From positions 1 through 37,418 of the IMG/VR virus record IMGVR_UViG_3300025114_000011: 37,418 nucleotides of DNA; one strand, given 5' to 3'. Below, in pieces: positions 7,306 through 36,010 of this stretch. Every line of letters starts with the position of its first letter. Position 1 is the first letter of the stretch. This DNA is from a virus (Duplodnaviria; Caudoviricetes). The notes under the pieces were generated by a model. It saw only the letters and a program-made list of their open reading frames with translations, made no database searches and was not told the DNA's origin. The position numbers were made by a program, and so were the translations under genes.

Positions 7306-8165
7306 CTCTTTTCGACTACAAATATCCTCCAGCCAACCCACCGCTTCAGGATGGGGACGCCCCAGGAGGAGACATTTTATCGGAGGACCTATATTACCCG
7401 GTGCCCCAGGCGGACTTAGGGACTGGGTCTTTGGATGTCATGAACGGGTTTTTAGATACTAGCAATCTGGAAGCAACAAACCCCTTTACTCGCCAACATT
7501 TACAGAAAGGCTCGCAGAGCGGGGGAGGCCAGGCTGGCGCCACAGCTAACATGGACTTCTTTAAGGACCTGTTTATGGGAAGTTCCTTGGCTCATCGGGG
7601 GGACGAGAAGACCGACGCGGAGTTGCGCGGAAAGTATGTTCCCATCCCAGGGGCAGGCGTTACCTTTTATCTGCCATACGACGCACATGTTCTCTTTATG
7701 TGGAACATTGGGTGGTTTAACGACGGCCCTTTCGGGCAGCCTACCTGGGACGTCACCGACCCCGAAGGGCGTGCGGGGTTCACCGGGGTTGCATTTTACG
7801 ACGGGTTCAACGTCAGCCAGCTCCAGCTTTTCTTCGACAACGGACTTGGGGTTATTCAAGACAAAACTAACAAAAGAAAATGTCCCGCTGGATTCGATAA
7901 CTTCACAGGCGGAAATGAAGCTACCCATCTAGACAGCTTGAATACCGCTAGATACTGGTGCGGCCATAAGCTTGTGAAAGGGATGCCAGCAGGGCAGCAC
8001 TCCGCAGGGCTGCGTCTGTTCGCTCCCTACACCTCCTACAAGATGACAGACCCCCAAGACCCCAACCGCGGCTTCGGCCATCGGGACGGCATCGTTCAAC
8101 AAACGCGCGTGCGCGTGCGCTCTATGCGCTATATTTGGTTTAGGCCCTCCAAAGTTCAACTATAG
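7302..8165 (+). CDS. Tail-associated structural protein
   Basis: ATGA overlap; MNGFLDTSNL motif similar to the two upstream genes. Confidence 0.55.
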   Translation: MTLFDYKYPPANPPLQDGDAPGGDILSEDLYYPVPQADLGTGSLDVMNGFLDTSNLEATNPFTRQHLQKGSQSGGGQAGATANMDFFKDLFMGSSLAHRGDEKTDAELRGKYVPIPGAGVTFYLPYDAHVLFMWNIGWFNDGPFGQPTWDVTDPEGRAGFTGVAFYDGFNVSQLQLFFDNGLGVIQDKTNKRKCPAGFDNFTGGNEATHLDSLNTARYWCGHKLVKGMPAGQHSAGLRLFAPYTSYKMTDPQDPNRGFGHRDGIVQQTRVRVRSMRYIWFRPSKVQL

Positions 8166-21435: not shown

Positions 21436-23303
21436 TGGCTTACGGACAGTCAGACCCCACCGCCTACCGCCAGTGGGAGATGCCGCAGGAGGTCCCCGAG
21501 CGCGAGGACATCGACTTCAGCAGCATGGATATGGTCTCCCTGGCTAACGGCCTGGACGAGAAGACCATCGTCAGCCTCAAGGAGTCAGAGGCGCAGGACC
21601 TGGCGCGACGCATGGCGCGGGTGCCCGAAGCGGAGGAGATTCTAAAGAGGAGAGGGGTGCATAAGCCACTCACTTACATGGGCTCAGGGATGCCTTCCTT
21701 GGTGGAGCGCGCTCAAAAGCAGTGGGGAGACCGGGGGATGAGCTTCGCCCAAGAGATGGTCCTTGGCCTTTCCAACCCAGCCGTTGAGTTTTTATTGGAC
21801 GTAGGGTTCACCATCGATGCTATTAAGGCTGCAGCTAAGGGTGAGGGACACCCTGGTGTAGCCATGATGGGGATGGGCATGGTCCTGCTTCCCTTCACCG
21901 GCCCTGTCCGTACCTTCTATAAAAATCAGGTGGCCGAAGCAGTCCTGCGTGCCGGGGCGGATGCAGACTTCGACCTGATCGCAAGGGACGCTTTAGATAG
22001 AACGCTGCGGGAGCACCCCGAGGCTATCCCTGTGTATCGGGAGCAGCTTGAGGAGACGCTTTCCGACCCAGCGCTGAACGCGGCGCAGCGAGAAGCGCTA
22101 GAGGAAAGCAGCCAGGTCGTGACGGATGTGGAGAAGACGGCGCTTGCAAGGCCTGAGGTGGCGGACTTCACCCCCACACCCTACGGAAGGCAGGCCGGGT
22201 CAAGCGTTTTAAAAAAGGTAGAGGGGCCCGACGCTATTAAAGCCAACAGAAATGCCGCCGCCGAGAACGCGCTGCTTAAGCATGACTGGACGTATGACCC
22301 AGATATCCCTATGGGGGCCAGCGCTGTCCACAAGTCAGGGACCGAAGTTGTCCCGCGCACCGACGTCGTCGCCCACCAACGGGGAAAAGGAAAAACAACT
22401 GAGGAACTCGAGGCGATAGACACTGCTGAATACGGTGGAAGTACGAGAGATACTCTTCGTCAAGTTAAGGAGCAACAGAAAGAACGGGCGGAGGAGTTGA
22501 ACAAGGGCGGAGTGATTCCCCGGGGTTACCCGGTCGTGCCGGAGCCGGAGGACCGCCTCAAGGAACTCTTTGATTTTAAAGGAACCCCCGTCGAGGAACT
22601 GGCCCACGCTAAGGCGTGGCTGAAGCGCGAGCGAGCGCTCCCCGAAGGGCAGATGGGCCAGGTTAAAGGGATGGCGGTGGATAAGATCTCCGCCCTGGAA
22701 GAAGAGATAGCGAAGGGGGCTCCTCCGCCTCCGCGCGCCACCACTGCGCCTTCCTTCGAGGAGAGCTGGGCCGACATCACCGAGTACTCTCGCTCACCGG
22801 AGGGGATTGCTGCAGCCCAGAAGGCTCAGGATGCCAAAGACAAGATGGCCTCTTGGCAAGCCCTCTCCCCCGAAGAGTTGGAGATGGGCGCCCGGCCTAA
22901 GGCCAAGGCCGAACCGAAGCCTGAGGTGAAGGCCGAGAAGCCTGCAGCGCCGCCAAAGCCTGAGAAGTCAATCTCCAAATGGAGGGAAGAGTTCGAAGCC
23001 CTTTCACCCCGCGAGCAGGAAACGTGGCTCAAGGAATACCATGCTAAGTTTCCTGACCGCGCACCCAAGAAGCCAAAGAAGAAGGGTTGGTTCGCGCGGC
23101 GCAAGGAGAAGGCGAACAAGCAGGCGGTGCTCGATGAAGCCAAGGTGGAGGACTGGACGCCCAAGAAAGAGGCCGACTACCAAAAGAAAAAGGAGGCCTT
23201 GAACGAGCCAGGGAAACCTAAGAAGAAGAAGGAGGAGCCCTTCCAGTGGAACGAAGACGGCACGCTCAACAAGTACCCCGGCGACGAAGTTGATTGGCGC
23301 TGA
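21435..23303 (+). CDS. Hypothetical 622-aa protein with central hydrophobic hairpin and Lys/Glu-rich C-terminus
   Basis: TAATG coupling; RBS GGAGGT; long ORF; ends in the 46-bp repeat. Confidence 0.7.
   Translation: MAYGQSDPTAYRQWEMPQEVPEREDIDFSSMDMVSLANGLDEKTIVSLKESEAQDLARRMARVPEAEEILKRRGVHKPLTYMGSGMPSLVERAQKQWGDRGMSFAQEMVLGLSNPAVEFLLDVGFTIDAIKAAAKGEGHPGVAMMGMGMVLLPFTGPVRTFYKNQVAEAVLRAGADADFDLIARDALDRTLREHPEAIPVYREQLEETLSDPALNAAQREALEESSQVVTDVEKTALARPEVADFTPTPYGRQAGSSVLKKVEGPDAIKANRNAAAENALLKHDWTYDPDIPMGASAVHKSGTEVVPRTDVVAHQRGKGKTTEELEAIDTAEYGGSTRDTLRQVKEQQKERAEELNKGGVIPRGYPVVPEPEDRLKELFDFKGTPVEELAHAKAWLKRERALPEGQMGQVKGMAVDKISALEEEIAKGAPPPPRATTAPSFEESWADITEYSRSPEGIAAAQKAQDAKDKMASWQALSPEELEMGARPKAKAEPKPEVKAEKPAAPPKPEKSISKWREEFEALSPREQETWLKEYHAKFPDRAPKKPKKKGWFARRKEKANKQAVLDEAKVEDWTPKKEADYQKKKEALNEPGKPKKKKEEPFQWNEDGTLNKYPGDEVDWR
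23235..23280 (+). repeat. 46-bp inverted repeat, copy 1
   Basis: GAGCCCTTCCAGTGGAACGAAGACGGCACGCTCAACAAGTACCCCG is the exact reverse complement of 34631-34676. Confidence 0.95.
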
Positions 23304-24034: not shown

Positions 24035-24514
24035 TTACGCAGTGTCCCCCGCTGTGTTCTTCATCGCGTCTCGCTCCAAAGTTCGTGCAGTCTCAAGCAC
24101 TCCGCCTGTTGTGGCCGACACCACAATGGACTGGTGGTCCCCGAGTAGGGAGGTAGTCGCGCGCCATCTGCCCTTGTAGCGCTCGACAATCCATCCCCGA
24201 CCCAGGTCGCACTCTAGCATCTCTTGCTCAACCTCCAGCAGCGAAGGCTCTGGGTCATCGTAGTCTTGGCAAGGCGCTTCCTCTCCCGGGATTAACCTGG
24301 TGTTCTTGGCCAAGAAGATGGTAGGCTGCGGAATAGAAGGCCACACTCGACCGAGCAGCTTGTCTACCGGCTCCTCTACATGCATGCGGGAGCCGTCTAA
24401 GAACGTGACACTGCTGGTGTTAGTCGTATTGGTGTGACCAGTAATGTACGAGACGTTCTCTCGCGGCACCACGATGACACCATCGAATGTCTTCAGTACG
24501 ATGAGCGCGCCCAT
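24035..24514 (-). CDS. Hypothetical protein with FlbD-like N-terminal domain
   Basis: Start at 24514 (TAATG overlap); LIVLKTFDG...NVSYI...VTFLDG...VEEPVDKL pattern. Confidence 0.5.
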   Translation of the reverse strand: MGALIVLKTFDGVIVVPRENVSYITGHTNTTNTSSVTFLDGSRMHVEEPVDKLLGRVWPSIPQPTIFLAKNTRLIPGEEAPCQDYDDPEPSLLEVEQEMLECDLGRGWIVERYKGRWRATTSLLGDHQSIVVSATTGGVLETARTLERDAMKNTAGDTA

Positions 24515-25143
24515 TAGAACGGCACCGAGTCGAAGGCCTCTTCGGCCGCGTCCAGTACTTTCTCTACACTCACAGGCATCGCGCTTACGTCGCCATGCTT
24601 CCAGTGAACACCATCGCAACCGTCAGTTGTCTTGGTTTCCTTATTCCATTTGCCTGCCTTGCACTTCCAGTCAGGACCAGTCGGCCTGTCCCGGTTATCC
24701 CACATAGGTCCGCCGCACTGCGGACACAGGGGGGCAGCCCCGTTAGTAGGCGCGGCCTGGGCTACAGGAGTCGAGGCTGTCTGCTGGGCTATAGCTATCT
24801 GCACTTCGTCTGCCGAGGCGTACTGGCTACTGCCTGCGAAGCCTACCGCAGTGGCAGCAAAGAGCGCGCGGCCGATACAGCTCGTCTCGCAGTTCTCAAG
24901 AGCCGAGGTACGGTTGACTTGAGAAGAGGCTCGGTTCTCTTCGGCAAAGCCTGTCGCTACCACCGTGCCGTTCGGCGCAATGATAGAGGCCTTCATGACT
25001 ACCGTCTCTTTGTCGAGTGCTATGATATCCGTCGTGATAGCCCAGCCTTCTTCGGCTGGGTGGTCTTGACGAAAGTCGTAGACGCGACGGGCTACGGTAA
25101 CGTAGTTGTTCCCATGTATACTAATGATTCCTTCGGTATTCAT
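24514..25143 (-). CDS. Putative single-strand annealing (Rad52/Sak-like) protein with C-terminal Zn finger
   Basis: YVTVARRV...TSALENCETSCIGRAL...YASADEV motif; adjacent to YqaJ exonuclease; CPQCGGPMWDNR Zn module. Confidence 0.6.
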   Translation of the reverse strand: MNTEGIISIHGNNYVTVARRVYDFRQDHPAEEGWAITTDIIALDKETVVMKASIIAPNGTVVATGFAEENRASSQVNRTSALENCETSCIGRALFAATAVGFAGSSQYASADEVQIAIAQQTASTPVAQAAPTNGAAPLCPQCGGPMWDNRDRPTGPDWKCKAGKWNKETKTTDGCDGVHWKHGDVSAMPVSVEKVLDAAEEAFDSVPF

Positions 25144-25151
25144 AATGACTC

Positions 25152-26135
25152 CTATTCAATCAGTTTTTTGAAGGTTGTTCTAAAGACACGGATAGGTTTC
25201 TCCGAACGCTCGGTATACTCGGCGACGAGTTCGGGACGTTCAGCTTTGAGACGCGAGGTGTTGAGCCGAGCTGCCGACCTCTGCCATCCCCACGACACCT
25301 TGAAGGTGGGGTTGAAGATGCCCTTGGCTGGGCCAATGCTTTCCTTGAGCTGGTTCTCAATGAGTCTCTTCTGCTGGTCTAGTGACTTCATCTGATCCTT
25401 AACGTCAGCTAGAGTTCGCGCAAGGGTGGCCTCAGTATCTGTTGCCGCGCGCTTAGGCACGCCCTGGTCTGACTCGTAGGTGGACTCCAGTAGCATGGCT
25501 GCCCCTTTGCTTCCGTCTATCTGAGGACGCTTGCCGCTGATGATGTGACGCTCCCACCATTCATCGATGACCTTCACCATACGCTCTTCCACTTCTAGAT
25601 CACGGTTGACATAGAAGAGACAGAACTCATCCTGCAAAGGAAAGTAGGTGGGCAAGACAGCGCGTCCGCAAGAGCCGTCGACTCCAATCTTATTAAGGTA
25701 CTGCTCCAAGATGGGCATGTACCAGCGCATCTGTATCTCCACTTCAATAGGGACGCGGCTACTGCCGGAGGCTCCCCATTGCTCTCGGTCCCGTGAGGTC
25801 TTGGCATCCACTACGACGTAGTCAATGTCTGCAGTGCGGGCGTAGCCGTCGAGACTAGCGCCGTGCCAAGCAGTGACGCCTTCGATGATGGACTGCTCGG
25901 GGTGAAGGACTTCGTGCCCACTCTTCTGGGCGTACCAGTTCATCAGCGCAGGTTCCAAGATATGACCCCGAGCCTGAACGTCGGTCTGCTTCTTCTTCTT
26001 GGCTTGGTTATTTTTCTCTAAGTACACATCGATAGGACCACCGTAACGGCTGGCCCCCATGATGCGCGACACGTCGGTGCCACAGACAAAGCGTCTTCTT
26101 TTTTCAAGCCACGCGGCTCGCTCATCAGCAGGCAT
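25152..26135 (-). CDS. YqaJ-like viral recombinase exonuclease
   Basis: WLEKRR...GTDVSRIMG, RGHILEP, ASLDG, DAKT and QMRWYM motifs. Confidence 0.85.
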   Translation of the reverse strand: MPADERAAWLEKRRRFVCGTDVSRIMGASRYGGPIDVYLEKNNQAKKKKQTDVQARGHILEPALMNWYAQKSGHEVLHPEQSIIEGVTAWHGASLDGYARTADIDYVVVDAKTSRDREQWGASGSSRVPIEVEIQMRWYMPILEQYLNKIGVDGSCGRAVLPTYFPLQDEFCLFYVNRDLEVEERMVKVIDEWWERHIISGKRPQIDGSKGAAMLLESTYESDQGVPKRAATDTEATLARTLADVKDQMKSLDQQKRLIENQLKESIGPAKGIFNPTFKVSWGWQRSAARLNTSRLKAERPELVAEYTERSEKPIRVFRTTFKKLIE

Positions 26136-26183
26136 GAAGCCTCCTTATAGTTCTTGGTTGGTTAGTAGTTCTCTCACATAAAG

Positions 26184-26252: not shown

Positions 26253-26489
26253 ATGAATGAAATAGCTATTGCGTTGCTTGGGGCCCGGAAAGAACAAGGG
26301 ATGACCCAGGACGAAGTCATAGAGAAATGTAACGACACCCACCCTGACGTCGGAGGGATCGTGCGACCTGCGCTTTCCTTCTGGGAGAAGGGAACCAGGC
26401 AGCCTTCCATCGTCCAGTTCATGGCGCTGGTCACGGCTCTGGATATGCCTGACAACCGAGTTCTCGAGGTGCTACGTGGAACCCTTTAA
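26253..26489 (+). CDS. XRE-family HTH regulator (Cro-like)
   Basis: ARKEQGMTQDEV...ALSFWEKGTRQPS motif; RBS AAGGAGGT. Confidence 0.85.
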   Translation: MNEIAIALLGARKEQGMTQDEVIEKCNDTHPDVGGIVRPALSFWEKGTRQPSIVQFMALVTALDMPDNRVLEVLRGTL

Positions 26490-26898
26490 GTTGCGCTTCA
26501 TTATACCGGGACCGCCAGTAGGAAAGGGGCGCCCAAGGTTTGCTCGCGCTACAGGCAGAGCCTACACTCCAAAGGGAACGGCGGAGTGGGAGCGGGCTTG
26601 CGCCATGCTAGGACGTCATGCATGGGACGGCAGCGCCCCGTTCGACGGCATGTGCCGCCTTGAGGTGGTAGCTGTAATGCCTAGGCCAAAGAGGCTACTC
26701 CGGAAGAAGGATCCCCAGGAGAGATTTTTTTGTGGGTCAAAACCGGACGCAGACAATATACTTAAGATTGTCGCTGACAGTCTGCAACTCGCCGGTATCG
26801 TTCGTCGTGACGAAACCATCGTCCAGATGTATATCGAAAAACTCTACGCCAGCAAAAACGAAGGGCCTTGCGTGGAGGTTACCCTCTCTTCCCTCTAA
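26476..26898 (+). CDS. rusA: RusA-family Holliday junction resolvase
   Basis: PVGKGRPRF, YTPKGT and KPDADNILKIVADSL motifs. Confidence 0.88.
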   Translation: MEPFKLRFIIPGPPVGKGRPRFARATGRAYTPKGTAEWERACAMLGRHAWDGSAPFDGMCRLEVVAVMPRPKRLLRKKDPQERFFCGSKPDADNILKIVADSLQLAGIVRRDETIVQMYIEKLYASKNEGPCVEVTLSSL

Positions 26899-26919
26899 CC
26901 TACCAGGAGCTAACCACTC

Positions 26920-29025: not shown

Positions 29026-29664
29026 ATGATTCTTTACGCTTCACAAACGCACGGCCGGCGCAACATCCAAGCGCTTGAGAAGCACGGGTTCAGAATCCTG
29101 GTAACCCCCGACACCTATCGAGAAGCCCCTCCTCTGTGGGTCGACGGGACCGCTGCCCCCTTCGCTATCGACAACGGAGCATGGGGTTGCGCCCAGCGCG
29201 GGGAGCCTTTCGACTGGGGTGCGTTTGAGTCGATGAGCTCCGCGCTCGGCGCCGACGCCGACTGGATCGTTGCGCCTGACATCGTGTGCGGCGGCTTGCG
29301 GTCGCTCGAGGCCTCTCTCCGCTGGCTCCCTACCTGGGACGCGTGCCCGGTTCTGATCGCTGTACAGGACGGGATGCTTCCGGTCCACTTGGAACCTCAC
29401 CTGGGCCCAGAGGTCGGGTTGGCAGTGGGTGGTTCGACTCCGTTCAAGGAGCGCACCCTCCCGCAGTGGGGGCGACTGGCCCAAGAGAAGGGGTGCCACC
29501 TTCACGTGCTACGCGTTAACACCAGGCGCCGGCTGGCTATCTGCCGGGCTGCCCAAGCTGACAGTGTCGACGGCACCAGTGCATCGATCTTTTCCAAGAC
29601 CGCGCCTCTGCTTGAGAGATGGACAAGGGCGCTACAGAAACAACAAACGCTAGGGATTTGGTAA
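29026..29664 (+). CDS. TGT-fold DpdA-like DNA guanine transglycosylase (7-deazaguanine insertion), putative
   Basis: FAIDNGAW, APDIV, AVQDG, AVGGS, HLHVL and DSVDGT motifs of short phage TGT-like proteins; coupled to queC-queD. Confidence 0.7.
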   Translation: MILYASQTHGRRNIQALEKHGFRILVTPDTYREAPPLWVDGTAAPFAIDNGAWGCAQRGEPFDWGAFESMSSALGADADWIVAPDIVCGGLRSLEASLRWLPTWDACPVLIAVQDGMLPVHLEPHLGPEVGLAVGGSTPFKERTLPQWGRLAQEKGCHLHVLRVNTRRRLAICRAAQADSVDGTSASIFSKTAPLLERWTRALQKQQTLGIW

Positions 29665-30242
29665 TGGGGAAGAAAATGAAAGACGATAAGGTATTAGTGT
29701 GCCTGTCCGGTGGGTTGGACTCCGCTGTTCTCGCGCACATGGCAGGTGATAGGCTAGGGCTATGCATCTTCTTTGACTACGGGCAGCAGGCGTTGCATCA
29801 AGAGCGAGCTGCATCCAAAGCGATAGCAGACAACCTTGGCGTGAGATGGGCCGAGGTTCTTATACTCCTGCTCTCTCTTAAGAAGATGAATGTTAAGCCG
29901 GGTAAGGGGGCTCGCGTTGTGCCAGCTCGCAACCTCAACATGCTAGCGAAAGCGACCATGTTTGCTCAGGCTCATGGGTTGAAGGAGGTCTGGTTCGGAG
30001 CAACAGCTGATGACTTCGATGACTATGAGGATTGCCGGCCAGGTTTTTTCGCCGGTCTCAACCGATGCACTGGCGACGTTAGCATAGTCGCTCCGCTCAT
30101 CGGCAAGACGGCAACACAGATAGTAAAGATGGCTAGCCGATATGGCGCAGACCTGGGCAAGACATGGTCCTGCTATGCGCCTCAGAAAAACAACTTACCC
30201 TGCGGGGTATGCAACTCGTGCTTAAGGAGAATCAATGCGTAG
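29664..30242 (+). CDS. queC: 7-cyano-7-deazaguanine synthase
   Basis: SGGLDS PP-loop, FDYGQ, VPARN, DCRP, TWSCY...CGVCNSC; TAATG coupling. Confidence 0.92.
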   Translation: MGKKMKDDKVLVCLSGGLDSAVLAHMAGDRLGLCIFFDYGQQALHQERAASKAIADNLGVRWAEVLILLLSLKKMNVKPGKGARVVPARNLNMLAKATMFAQAHGLKEVWFGATADDFDDYEDCRPGFFAGLNRCTGDVSIVAPLIGKTATQIVKMASRYGADLGKTWSCYAPQKNNLPCGVCNSCLRRINA

Positions 30243-30630
30243 CTTTGAACTGAATGTTAACTTCAACCTAGAGTGTGCTCACTACCTACCGAACGTGCCC
30301 GAGGGACACAAGTGCGGGAGGATGCATGGTCACTCTTACAAGGTGACTGTCACCACAGTATCGGGGGCAAAGCCCGGCGAACCCGAACTCGACCCGGCAA
30401 AAGGTTGGTTCGCTGACAGCGGGGAGGTGAAGGAAAAGACAGAGGCAATCCGCAAGAGCCTAGACCATAGGTGTCTCAACGATATCATGCCTAACCCCAC
30501 CGCTGAGAAACTAGCGCAATGGATCTACGAGTGCCTCTCGTTCGCAGTGATCTCTCTCGGCGCCGACGTTAAGGCAGTCACGGTGTACGAGACGGAGAAC
30601 ACCAGCGTGGTCTACAGGCCTCAGCCATGA
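30235..30630 (+). CDS. queD: 6-carboxy-5,6,7,8-tetrahydropterin synthase
   Basis: AH.LPNVPEGHKCGRMHGHSY, LDHRCLN, NPTAE and YET motifs. Confidence 0.93.
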   Translation: MRSFELNVNFNLECAHYLPNVPEGHKCGRMHGHSYKVTVTTVSGAKPGEPELDPAKGWFADSGEVKEKTEAIRKSLDHRCLNDIMPNPTAEKLAQWIYECLSFAVISLGADVKAVTVYETENTSVVYRPQP

Positions 30631-30845
30631 CAAGAGCACAAAGAAAGATAGCGATGGCTAAGAAGATCATCACGCCGCGCCAGGGTGAGGTCTTGCTTGA
30701 GCTGCGCTCGAGCTACACCGGGGTTCTCTTTCGGCCGGTGCATACCCTCGAGCTACTGCAGAAGAAGGGGATGGTAGTGGGAAACAAGCAGAAGGGATGG
30801 AAACTCACCGAGCTCGGCCTCAGTTACATCGAGGCTATTCCGTGA
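30627..30845 (+). CDS. Small basic winged-helix-like protein
   Basis: ATGA coupling; TPRQGEVL...LELLQKKGMV...WKLTELG pattern. Confidence 0.6.
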   Translation: MTRAQRKIAMAKKIITPRQGEVLLELRSSYTGVLFRPVHTLELLQKKGMVVGNKQKGWKLTELGLSYIEAIP

Positions 30846-30857
30846 TATGATCGGCGG

Positions 30858-30953
30858 ATGCCTCCCGACTTCCCAGGCGACGGAGTCGTGCTCCTGATGT
30901 TTACGGTAGTCCTGCTAGCGCTCGCGATGGACTCGTACATTAACAGGCGCTAG
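30858..30953 (+). CDS. 31-aa single-TM peptide
   Basis: MPPDFPGDGVVLLMFTVVLLALAMDSYINRR, read manually; ends the operon. Confidence 0.35.
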   Translation: MPPDFPGDGVVLLMFTVVLLALAMDSYINRR

Positions 30954-30964
30954 GCTTGGTGGAC

Positions 30965-30993
30965 TTGCTGCTTGTTTACAGACCGTGTATAGT
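30965..30993 (+). promoter_or_regulatory. sigma70-like promoter for candidate sRNA
   Basis: TTGCTG-17 bp-TATAGT. Confidence 0.55.
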
Positions 30994-30998
30994 GAGAG

Positions 30999-31082
30999 GG
31001 ACGGGTTCCCCTCGTCACTCCTATTTGGTTAGTAGGTTAGGGGTCCGGCTCTCTGGTGATGGGAGTCGGGCTTTCCTTTTAT
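30999..31082 (+). ncRNA. Candidate trans-acting antisense sRNA
   Basis: Promoter, 5' hairpin GACGGG/CTCGTC, unpaired ACTCCTATTTGGTTAGTAGGTTAG, GU-containing terminator stem and U-rich tail; no credible ORF. Confidence 0.55.
31043..31082 (+). terminator. Intrinsic terminator
   Basis: GTCCGGCTCTC/GGGAGTCGGGC stem (3 G-U pairs, valid only on +) followed by TTTCCTTTT. Confidence 0.6.
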
Positions 31083-33454: not shown

Positions 33455-33769
33455 TCAGGAACTAAGTTCGCTGAAGGTCATCAGCACACTAGCGGGAAGG
33501 ACCAAGGTGAAGGGGCACACTCCGTCGTTCACCAGGGTGACGGCGAAGAGAACCCAGAAGCGCTCCTGCGGGAGAGGGATGGCCAGCCTCACCGGGTGGC
33601 GCGAGTCCGGGCACACCACCTCGGCCAGGTCCGACAGGTCGTAGTTGTAGCCACGGTTGGCGCGGTCGTCGGAGAAGGTGCGCATCGCCAGTAGGTTCTG
33701 GGTGTCAGTCCACCAGACGGAGGCATCGAGCGAGGCAGCTTCTTCTGCGTGGCGAATCATGGGGACCAT
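33455..33769 (-). CDS. Hypothetical protein
   Basis: Overlap-coupled; GAGGT RBS. Confidence 0.55.
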   Translation of the reverse strand: MVPMIRHAEEAASLDASVWWTDTQNLLAMRTFSDDRANRGYNYDLSDLAEVVCPDSRHPVRLAIPLPQERFWVLFAVTLVNDGVCPFTLVLPASVLMTFSELSS

Positions 33770-34290
33770 CGTATCACCTCTTGGGCAGACGGCGCGTATA
33801 GAAATAGTTTATTTCTTTTGCGCTCGCCCTTCTCCCACCCGGCGGACTGGTAACAGAAGCCGGGGTTGGAACTTCTCACCTTCTTCACATCCACCTCCGT
33901 TCGAAGGCGCTCGCAGGGCATCTCTCCATAGCGCTCCAGCCAGATGCGGTAGGTAGCCTCGGTCGCCGAGCGGATCAGCTCCGACGACAGGCCGGCGCCC
34001 AGATTTCGGAAGAGCATGTTGCGCCACACGTAGACAGGCTTGGTGTCGGCTGCGCTCGTCCTTCCGCGTGAGCTTCCGCTGCCTCTGCGTGAGGGTGTGC
34101 GCTGACGCACGACTGCCCACACAGCTCGGCCGCATGCGCTCACCAGGACGACCTCCTGTCCTACTCCGGTGAAGGTCTTGCTCCCCGGCGTGCGCCGGGA
34201 GTAGTGAGGACCCAGCCCGTCGAAGGGCCCAGTGCCGTCCACCACTTGAAGCGCTCGTGGGTCAGACGATGATGACAGTTCCCACATCAC
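33757..34290 (-). CDS. Mom-like GNAT-fold DNA modification protein, putative
   Basis: HYSR, FRN..AGLSSELIRSA and TEVDVKKVRSSNPGFCYQSAGW motifs resembling Mom-related phage proteins. Confidence 0.6.
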   Translation of the reverse strand: MMWELSSSSDPRALQVVDGTGPFDGLGPHYSRRTPGSKTFTGVGQEVVLVSACGRAVWAVVRQRTPSRRGSGSSRGRTSAADTKPVYVWRNMLFRNLGAGLSSELIRSATEATYRIWLERYGEMPCERLRTEVDVKKVRSSNPGFCYQSAGWEKGERKRNKLFLYAPSAQEVIRWSP

Positions 34291-34382
34291 TCCACCTCCG
34301 TGTGGTCAGGCTCAAACCCCATGAGTAACTCTACCCATGTTGGGTTGAGAGGGCCAGCAGCTTGAGCGTTTAGACTACTCAC
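34287..34382 (-). pseudogene. 31-aa ORF resembling the C-terminal motif of phage C5-cytosine methyltransferases
   Basis: GTG start; MSSLNAQAAGPLNPTWVELLMGFEPDHTEVE; LNPxWVExLMGF signature. Confidence 0.6.
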
Positions 34383-34599
34383 GGTCGCCCTCCCCTGCTA
34401 GGAACGCTGAGTAGATAGCGTCGAGCATCACTTGGTCTTCGGACACAGTGAGATCGAAGACGTTGCCGGTCCCTTCCTCCACCACGTAGTCGATGGTCAC
34501 GTCTGGCCCGTGCTTCATGCACACGTGGCCTGCCACGGTGAGTTGGTAGTCGGTGCCGTCTTGACGCACCAGTTCGATGTCGATGACGACGTTCATCAT
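34375..34599 (-). CDS. Small acidic hypothetical protein
   Basis: ATGA overlap with upstream gene; GGAGGT RBS; MMNVVIDIELV start. Confidence 0.6.
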   Translation of the reverse strand: MMNVVIDIELVRQDGTDYQLTVAGHVCMKHGPDVTIDYVVEEGTGNVFDLTVSEDQVMLDAIYSAFLAGEGDRE

Positions 34600-34982
34600 G
34601 CACCTCCAGTGGTGGCGAGCACCGGCTCGTCGGGGTACTTGTTGAGCGTGCCGTCTTCGTTCCACTGGAAGGGCTCGCCTTCGTCCTTGAAGCTTGGGCC
34701 ATGGTAGCCTTGGCTCATCTCTTGCTCGTCGTGAGTGAGGACAGGTGCCATCGAGACAGTGCAGTTGTCGCACGTCCACTCGTCGCCGTCTTCGAGCAGG
34801 TCAAGGACATCCTCCAGCGATGCCATGGTGAGGATGTAGGACTTGGCTGCGGGTGCAGTCAACTCCCATGTGCCATCCTCGTGAAAGAGATTGGTGCTGG
34901 CAAACTTCTCGCGAAGCGCAGCTACGGTATGAGTCTCGGTGGTGGTGTCCCACGAGATCTTGATCATGGTTGAGTCGTTCAT
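34596..34982 (-). CDS. Acidic hypothetical early protein (CxxC) ending in the 46-bp repeat peptide
   Basis: First ORF after leftward promoter; GGAG RBS. Confidence 0.65.
   Translation of the reverse strand: MNDSTMIKISWDTTTETHTVAALREKFASTNLFHEDGTWELTAPAAKSYILTMASLEDVLDLLEDGDEWTCDNCTVSMAPVLTHDEQEMSQGYHGPSFKDEGEPFQWNEDGTLNKYPDEPVLATTGGA
34631..34676 (-). repeat. 46-bp inverted repeat, copy 2
   Basis: Exact reverse complement of 23235-23280. Confidence 0.95.
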
Positions 34983-35033
34983 GGTGATGTACTCCGGTAT
35001 GAGCTGGTTAGTAGAAGGTCGCCCTTCACATAC

Positions 35034-35063
35034 AGACTACACTGATTGTTACATGGGTGTCAA
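35034..35063 (-). promoter_or_regulatory. sigma70-like leftward early promoter
   Basis: TTGACA-18 bp-TAGTCT; TGTTACA box in spacer. Confidence 0.65.
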
Positions 35064-35208
35064 GCAGGTTGGAAAAAAAAATGGGCAAGCACCAGGCACC
35101 TGCGGGATATGGTAGTTTGTGACTGATTGTTACGGGATAACCTTTCTCAGGGGATGGGCCAGCAGGAGGGGCCGGCTGAAAGATTCGGATGAAGCTTGAC
35201 TTGGTCAC

Positions 35209-35405
35209 GTGGCCTAACCGGGATAACCTACTACTTTAAAATGTATATTCATAATTATAGTATATATTATACAGACTGTTACATAGGCCACTATATCCCA
35301 CCTATAGGAGAGAGTGTTCGAAATAGGTTAGGCCGGTTAGGCCACAATGCCGAAACCTAGTTAGCTAGGGGCATACCAGCCGGCCTAACGTAGGGCCTAA
35401 CCTAT
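35209..35405. repeat. Candidate replication origin: inverted GGTTAGGCC repeats around an AT-rich core
   Basis: GTGGCCTAACCGG (35209-21) / CCGGTTAGGCCAC (35333-45); ATAGGTTAGGCC (35323-34) / GGCCTAACCTAT (35394-405); AT-rich 35232-35285. Confidence 0.5.
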
Positions 35406-35449
35406 GTTTGAGGATAGGCCAGCGGAGGTCTGGTAACATAGCGTGTCAA

Positions 35450-35700
35450 GCCTCGGAGCCTAGAGTCCAATCAGGCGCGAGGCCTCGGAGCCTCGACGCC
35501 AATCGCGCGTAACCTCGCACGCGCGGGGCCTCGGGGCCTAAGGTGCCATCACCTGCACGCGCGGGGCGTATCACTTTTGAATCACCACTGACAATATGTC
35601 ACAGCTGCTGACAATCTGTCATGGGGGTGTATCATTTTGAGCTCATCAAAAATGATACATGGCTCGAGGATGAATCACCAGGTGTATCATTTTTGATACG
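35450..35700. repeat. Cluster of short direct and palindromic repeats
   Basis: GCCTCGGRGCCT x3; TGACA-N3-TGTCA x2; GTATCA..TTTTGA x4 (one inverted). Confidence 0.8.
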
Positions 35701-35712
35701 GTAAGATAGTTG

Positions 35713-35742
35713 TTTACAATCTGTTACATTGTATGGTAGGGT
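35713..35742 (+). promoter_or_regulatory. sigma70-like rightward early promoter
   Basis: TTTACA-18 bp-TAGGGT with extended TG; TGTTACA box in spacer. Confidence 0.5.
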
Positions 35743-35770
35743 GTTCATGAATCTAACCAAGGGAGTGAAT

Positions 35771-36010
35771 ATGATTCTGCTATCTGAGTGTGAGTATGAC
35801 AGAGCAATGACAGAGGATATAGGCTATTGCCTAGCGTGTAACGAGGAAGCTACAGTCTACGAGCCCGACGCCCGTCACTATACGTGTGAGGATTGCGGTA
35901 AGCCTCAAGTGTTTGCCGCGATAGAGCTTCAGATTATGGGGCTTGTTGATATCAAGGTCGACGACAACGAGCCGGCTCTTGATTGCGCTTTGCATCACGG
36001 TGCATCATGA
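35771..36010 (+). CDS. Small Zn-ribbon phage protein
   Basis: GYCLAC...EPDARHYTCEDCG; GGGAG RBS before ATG 35771. Confidence 0.75.
   Translation: MILLSECEYDRAMTEDIGYCLACNEEATVYEPDARHYTCEDCGKPQVFAAIELQIMGLVDIKVDDNEPALDCALHHGAS

Follow-up and report, generated by a model that had tools for sequence, protein, structure and literature searches.

The window, that is, the whole stretch of 37,418 nucleotides of viral DNA that was analysed, represents a record of 37.4 kb which is 76% complete (CheckV) and is present in marine metagenome runs, the 24 listed runs including no RNA run. No DNA relative of the window has been detected among 50,697 cultured phage records, and a scan of viral contigs for the exact pairing core described below returned a single match, a 99.96% copy. 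In the complete relative G005, a terminase, a P22-like portal and a major head protein are present. The element studied here is located between converging plus-strand and minus-strand operons, and the surrounding genes are organized as follows:

1-23996: structural genes
Right of the structural genes, minus strand: YqaJ/RecE-like exonuclease operon
Right part of the window, plus strand: HTH-RusA-primase/helicase-QueC-QueD operon
Right part of the window, minus strand: helicase operon
Around 35000-35770: two divergent early operons
30627-30845, plus strand: 72-aa gene upstream of the element, the syntenic anchor in the window, G002 and G005
30858-30953, plus strand: unannotated 31-aa hydrophobic ORF, immediately 5' of the RNA promoter

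The element itself is predicted to be the gene for a non-coding RNA of about 82 bases (31000-31081, plus strand), with the following parts:

30965-30993, plus strand: candidate promoter of the sigma-70 type, TTGCTG-17-TATAGT, with transcription predicted to begin near 30999-31000
31000-31016, plus strand: 5' hairpin of the predicted RNA, by fold prediction, with strain changes confined to the loop
31017-31040, plus strand: pairing core, the anti-SD ACUCCU followed by a G/U-rich seed
31042-31081, plus strand only: intrinsic terminator, from fold energy and strain changes

A check against the sequence has confirmed the coordinates and motifs given by an earlier, sequence-only reading of this DNA, including nine target segments in antisense-compatible orientation. 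The candidate promoter matches 8 of the 12 consensus bases and is absent from the 13 sites of a standard promoter scan; among six terminator candidates in the window, only the element has a promoter score of at least 9. The terminator had been described as functional on one strand, and the stem 31042-31072 indeed folds with -19.5 kcal/mol on the plus strand versus -6.4 kcal/mol on the minus strand. It likely ends the upstream operon as well. The core, previously regarded as unpaired, is instead predicted to form a weak 6-bp hairpin (31020-31025 with 31031-31036, unpaired probability at most 0.10), so that the anti-SD lies within a predicted stem and the whole RNA folds into three hairpins in series. 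The loop GGUUA (31026-31030) is predicted to be open, and its complement UAACC is found in four of the five leaders named below.

Two observations concern the immediate neighbourhood. For the helicase operon on the minus strand, termination from 31079-31082 onward is predicted to be poor (-6.4 kcal/mol); read-through would yield a transcript perfectly complementary to the RNA, which might, speculatively, soak the RNA up. The 31-aa ORF has a similar 31-aa peptide at the equivalent place in G005 (L083 1847-1942), and 8 of the 13 changes found in it in the strain X24 fall on third codon positions; our guess is that its product is a small membrane protein, possibly for exclusion. A type I toxin-antitoxin arrangement has been rejected, as this ORF, upstream of the element, is encoded on the strand of the RNA and contains no match to the core of at least 7 nt.

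The predicted RNA is complementary to leaders of the phage's own early and replication genes, the first five of which are referred to as the named leaders:

26141-26168, minus strand: YqaJ/RecE-like exonuclease leader, 11 nt at 26158-26168 plus the SD at 26141-26145 (z -4.1)
25148-25156, minus strand: SD region of ORF 24514-25143, 9 nt (z -3.95)
26895-26916, plus strand: primase-helicase leader, 9 nt at 26895-26903, the SD at 26905-26909 and a second, 7-nt copy at 26910-26916 (z -2.5)
34991-35014, minus strand: leader of ORF 34596-34982, 10 nt plus the SD (z -3.4)
35753-35768, plus strand: leader of ORF 35771-36010, which opens the rightward early operon, 8 nt and a further 7 nt across the SD (z -3.5)
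34278-34293, minus strand: SD and start of ORF 33757-34287, a possible but uncertain sixth target, pairing with the 5' hairpin and the anti-SD

ORF 24514-25143 had been called an annealing gene; it matches only PHROGs of unknown function, which does not support the label. ORF 34596-34982 is the first gene of the leftward early operon, with a promoter candidate TTGACA-18-TAGTCT from 35063, and a candidate TTGCAA-17-TACTCT from 26212 precedes YqaJ. The word TGTTAC is repeated in the YqaJ/HTH and early promoters (26198, 26215, 26228, 35047, 35128, 35277 and 35722, seven of 11 plus-strand copies), and TGTTTAC occurs at 30973, in the spacer of the RNA promoter, and at 35711. The TGTTAC repeats are possibly the operator of the HTH protein encoded at 26253-26489, which may also control the RNA.

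The expected enrichment of complementarity in early leaders has been borne out. Among 14,218 segments of 45 nt, taken from both strands with the antisense strands of the leaders excluded, the element ranks first for 8-nt matches to 42 leaders. Just four segments match six leaders at this length, the best being the element, and no separate segment matches more than five; the element is also at the top when 9-nt matches are counted. When the element is compared with 500-1000 dinucleotide shuffles, it scores p=0.002 on the best four among the 19 early and replication leaders, whereas on the 23 late leaders, defined as late by position, it scores p=0.22. The Watson-Crick two-helix score used here ignores G-U pairs and misses bulged sites, for example the 4062 leader of G005, which is visible in cofolding. 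By this score the named leaders rank 1-4 and 6 of 42. Across the genome the core has 14 matches of at least 8 nt, five of which fall in correctly oriented leaders; a 9-nt match at 8132-8140, upstream of the late gene 8175, is wrongly oriented. When the full RNA was cofolded with the leaders and their self-structure was taken into account, the top eight of 42 contained three of the five named leaders, three late leaders and, in first place, the 34287 gene, which has the best cofold energy yet a z of only -1.55. The target leaders appear largely unstructured in this prediction, and for YqaJ and the primase-helicase the upstream seed alone pairs, leaving the SD free.

Comparison of close strains reveals that the core is constrained. 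In L094 and L095 none of the 24 core bases is changed, versus 27 and 43 of 219 bases in the 72-aa gene, and no core change occurs among the changes listed for X24, X23 and X19. Both promoter hexamers are intact in L094, L095 and X24, with changes in the spacer only. X24 carries 24 changes in 30645-30977 and none in 30978-31082, except for one base inserted at the 5' loop (24 of its 27 changes being listed); the chance of such an absence of change in the RNA part is about 0.002. This strain keeps the element while it is devoid of QueC/QueD on one side and of the zinc-finger gene on the other, and its altered 35771 leader matches the core over 9 nt instead of 8. Three changes in the terminator (31044 and 31062, both from X19, a single contig of depth 2.5, and 31066 from L095) each convert a G-U pair into a Watson-Crick pair on the plus strand.

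A full-length primase-helicase with 48-59% identity is encoded in five viral loci (L004-L008), of which L006 ends short of the relevant site. BLAST and nhmmer searches of the loci with the element returned same-lineage copies only, and elements in distant lineages were first located by inspecting the corresponding site downstream of the 30627-30845 ortholog. At this site, in G002 (L005) and L004, TTGACA-17-TACTAA is followed by a 5' hairpin, by a core that contains ACTCCTGGGGTAGTG and by a terminator, and the leaders of G002 repeat CCCCAGGAG. G005 and L097 possess, at the same position, TTGCGC-17-TACAAT, a hairpin with CTCCATGTG, then GTTTGGTTAGGTT and a terminator; the first genes of the two divergent early operons of G005 have AACCAAAC and CACATGGAG. 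One of these first genes is a 53% aa ortholog of the 34982 gene of the window and ranks among the top targets of the G005 element. When 142 terminator candidates from intergenic regions of 95 records were scanned blind, the five known elements were recovered and a further, fourth type emerged at 2784-2908 of L007; its fold has a z of -6.55, its seed lies in an 18-nt loop including ACUUUCCUGUU, and the L007 leaders carry AACAGGAAAG. This element lies behind the primase-helicase and not behind a 72-aa gene. Sixteen of the 142 candidates had a promoter score of at least 9, eight of these reached p<=0.05, and five of the eight were the known elements; the candidates in L059, L027 and L179 look weak.

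The seed and its targets change together. The orthologous primase-helicase leader reads CTAACCTAC with AGGAG in the window, CACTACCCC with GAGTA in G002 and AACCTAACCAA with TGGAGAC in G005, each complementing its own element, so that the predicted covariation is found in three lineages. In a four-by-four swap, each element against its own early leaders gave p=0.002, 0.006, 0.001 and 0.026 (0.002 for the window and 0.026 for L007), and the 12 crossed pairs gave p=0.014-0.97. The L007 element scored more weakly on its own leaders than on those of G005 (p=0.014), and the window element reached p=0.020 on G005 leaders; both of these lowest crossed values thus involve G005 leaders, which share the words AACCAAA and AGGAAAG. 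In nine tests on late leaders, two crossed pairs reached p=0.02 and 0.048. Before the swap, three missed genes were added to the leader set of the window, three G005 gene calls and one G002 call were removed as spurious and the G005 primase start was re-set; the G005 RusA leader was excluded. By a plain 8-mer count the G002 element is third and the G005 element falls outside the top six segments. Only 2 of the 20 early leaders of G002 reach a z of -2, and the G002 YqaJ leader and the L007 primase leader pair little beyond the SD. Pairing covers the SD of several targets in every lineage, and the longest matches in G002, G005 and L007 run through the SD itself.

All four lineages share the same layout: the terminator folds better on the RNA strand, and the element has the orientation of the upstream operon. 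The window, G002 and L007 elements are predicted to fold into a series of three or four hairpins, the last being the terminator, and the G005 element into two hairpins. A four-way alignment was uninformative and yielded no convincing match. The common descent of the four elements from one ancestral RNA, which we infer, therefore rests on position and layout. Distant homologs of the 72-aa protein (L101-L108, 43-65% over the matched part) have also been considered; no such element was seen by eye in the 700 bases downstream at seven syntenic loci (L101-L106 and L108), which indicates that the element tracks the clade and not the 72-aa gene.

A scan of all leaders found a match in 27 of the 95 records; among the 22 records listed, L025, L032 and L045 have been discarded as inverted leaders of uncalled genes. 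Two further sites were noted. A conserved promoter-hairpin-terminator unit is present on the plus strand in a more distant, abundant phage group (L059 17484-17567 and L071 17439-17522) and pairs weakly with its own leaders (p=0.005 and 0.09). In an unrelated virus of 65% GC, an intergenic stretch (L182 5031-5056, minus strand) mirrors AACGCGGGAG of 7 of the 35 leaders with short flanking arms; it has no clear promoter or terminator, and its hairpin is not the lowest-energy fold.

The C4 RNA, and alongside it the CI RNA of P4, served as the original comparison for the element. As an analogy in two-part pairing the comparison holds; membership of the C4 family does not, since Rfam gives no match at the element locus of the window with E up to 1. 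Nor does Rfam match the elements in L083, L085, L094 and L095, and in L007 (2600-3100) it returns five chance-level matches far below the cut-off, none of them C4. According to the available text of PMC5320573, C4 of P1/P7 is likewise a short phage RNA which acts in trans on the phage's own mRNA through two short segments, one partly over the ribosome-binding site and one upstream that sets specificity and differs between related phages. Such pairing is predicted for five window leaders and for the top three G005 leaders. However, C4 is processed from a longer transcript by RNase P and folds into stem-loops P1, P2 and P3, which present a' and b' loops, whereas the element is predicted to consist of hairpins in series with their own promoter and terminator. 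C4 represses an antirepressor operon in a temperate phage; the element would act on at least five leaders scattered over early and replication genes, with no temperate sign, and no antirepressor family was found among 41 window ORFs or 38 proteins of the relatives.

The element also resembles GcvB of enteric bacteria, one RNA that silences many mRNAs through an A/C-containing sequence just upstream of the SD (accessible part of PMC3879156). GcvB is host-encoded and metabolic; in contrast, the element is phage-encoded and lacks GcvB sequence or an Rfam match. The GcvB-type layout, with its own promoter, a seed, an intrinsic terminator and targets elsewhere in the genome, is predicted in four lineages. 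Phage sRNAs such as sar, OOP, aQ, STnc6030, PreS and VpdS control development or superinfection exclusion, being cis-antisense to one gene or acting on host mRNAs or Hfq; unlike these, as far as they are described in the available portion of PMC12197685, the element mirrors a leader word common to the phage's early genes. PMC12197685 also tabulates 38 uncharacterised phage sRNAs, which may bear on novelty, and many ncRNA candidates without functions are reported for virulent Pseudomonas phages (PMC10914365, available sections). No regulon-wide RNA directed at a leader word is described in the literature searched, which includes the accessible part of the review PMC12197685 and leaves most subscription journals out of reach.

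On the grounds of these sequence comparisons it is very probable that the element is an RNA pairing with the early and replication leaders. It probably acts as their repressor, with early-gene shut-off as its main role, and a single RNA likely switches the five-gene set off together. The RNA would be made by the host RNA polymerase from its own promoter, perhaps also as the 3' end of the upstream operon. Its open GGUUA loop would touch the shared UAACC word first, the weak core stem would then open to cover the SD, and pairing over the A/C-rich upstream stretch and the Shine-Dalgarno sequence would block translation. As the predicted promoters of the RNA and of its targets are all of the host sigma-70 type, the RNA and its targets would start together, making a stable RNA a delay switch; by accumulating in the course of infection, it would lower the primase-helicase, the recombination operon and the two divergent early operons. 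If another phage with the same seed type entered a cell that contains the RNA, it would be silenced as well, and superinfection exclusion fits best as a by-product of early shut-off.

The sequence-only reading had assigned to one repressor RNA, with seed and anti-SD, a role in timing, a carrier state or immunity. The enrichment in early leaders, the covariation and the failure of the decayed-leader reading discussed below favour such a repressor. Of the three roles, lysogenic immunity is unlikely and the least supported, because tyrosine integrase, resolvase and ParA are found in none of three records (one complete; positive controls recovered in 13-14 of 14) and no prophage of the clade occurs in 185,579 species genomes, where five matches were distant C-terminal ones only.

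The same RNA and pairing could serve chiefly for immunity, in a quiet non-integrating carrier state or in superinfection exclusion, with the divergence of seed and leader defining heteroimmune groups, in the manner of C4 in P1 and P7. Seed and leader do differ among all four lineages and are fixed within each, the targets cover every early entry point as well as the primase-helicase, a small HTH gene faces YqaJ near the repeated TGTTAC promoter words, and the specificity of C4 is set by a few loop bases (PMC5320573, available text). Joint drift of seed and leader would, however, also give this divergence, and together with the integrase, resolvase, ParA and prophage results it makes immunity an unlikely main function. 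It is a good deal less probable that the RNA pairs with its targets and raises expression, by stabilising the 5' end or opening structure, or that its main targets are host mRNAs reached through the anti-SD. The free SD in the cofolds of YqaJ and the primase-helicase would agree with this, as would lambda PreS, which targets host dnaN according to the available portion of PMC12197685; the target leaders are, however, largely unstructured, and the passage of the longest matches in G002, G005 and L007 through the SD favours repression.

Slightly less probable still is that the element does no more than terminate the upstream operon and form its 3' end, with strong translation signals as the leader words and a decayed inverted leader or an effect of base composition as the mirror. 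The position at a site of operon convergence, the shared direction with the upstream operon in all four lineages, the modest promoter and the inverted leader copies in L025, L032 and L045 speak for such a reading. It is opposed by the success against composition-preserving shuffles, by a core that is unchanged while neighbouring genes are 12-20% changed, and by four different mirrors, each fitting its own phage. The decayed minus-strand leader, in particular, has been rejected: no start codon follows the mirrored SD after 0-15 nt, the promoter and terminator lie on the seed strand in four lineages, and the core is constrained.

If repression by a pairing RNA is correct, an RNA that follows one leader word through the recombination and replication genes as well as the two early operons of an integrase-less phage would be a regulon-wide RNA switch, and it would explain why such phages retain a common leader word. 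Phage early-gene shut-off is mostly credited to proteins. The layout of the element also provides a search rule for RNAs that sequence search misses.

Leader words are also known from cluster K mycobacteriophages, whose start-associated sequences (SAS) are conserved around the SD and confined to non-structural genes; the available text of PMC3203893 leaves open whether RNA or protein binds them, and reports one reverse copy in each K1 phage. A similar word occurs in cluster EF Microbacterium phages (PMC7302621, accessible part). The present system differs in that a complementary RNA gene is predicted and in that the leader words of the window are shorter and less uniform, its five targets sharing short words only; the element segment of G002 matches 9 of 52 leaders, seven of them early, and that of L007 matches 6 of 21. 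Of the right arms of three cluster K phages, that of Adephagia (JF704105) contains the reverse SAS and those of Pixie and TM4 do not. In Adephagia the region separating genes 92 and 93 contains the single reverse copy, versus 16 forward copies; the copy forms part of the loop of a long hairpin (about 58655-58719; L190 32656-32720; z -6.3) just after another hairpin, and this long hairpin has nearly equal energy on the opposite strand. The hairpin is a candidate anti-SAS RNA, by which the question of the SAS binder, as posed in the available part of PMC3203893, becomes testable in a cultured phage.

We tentatively extend this to a wider proposal, which we consider somewhat more doubtful than probable: repeated early-leader words may be address tags for one phage-made RNA, a reprogrammable RNA-only master switch in non-integrating phages that is rewritten with its tags in each lineage and doubles as lineage-specific superinfection immunity. 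On this view the SAS of K1 phages would belong to such a system, and the hairpin at Adephagia 58655-58719 would be its RNA.

Several other features of the window have been recorded. A 60-nt inverted repeat, 93% alike, is present at 23225-23284 and 34627-34685, in the 3' ends of a 622-aa late ORF and of an early-region ORF; both copies are read in their own sense, which indicates a duplicated coding patch. The cassette at 29026-30630 encodes an unknown 212-aa protein (PHROG 15826, with 1,211 relatives at E 0.001), QueC and QueD, and is partly absent from X24 and wholly absent from L095. We assume that the QueC/QueD cassette may serve 7-deazaguanine DNA modification; neither DpdA nor FolE was named in the family scans of the window. 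The non-coding stretch 35200-35700 is A/T-rich at its core and contains repeats of the GGAGCCTCG type, to which X24 adds one unit of 18 bases; the stretch appears origin- or terminus-like.
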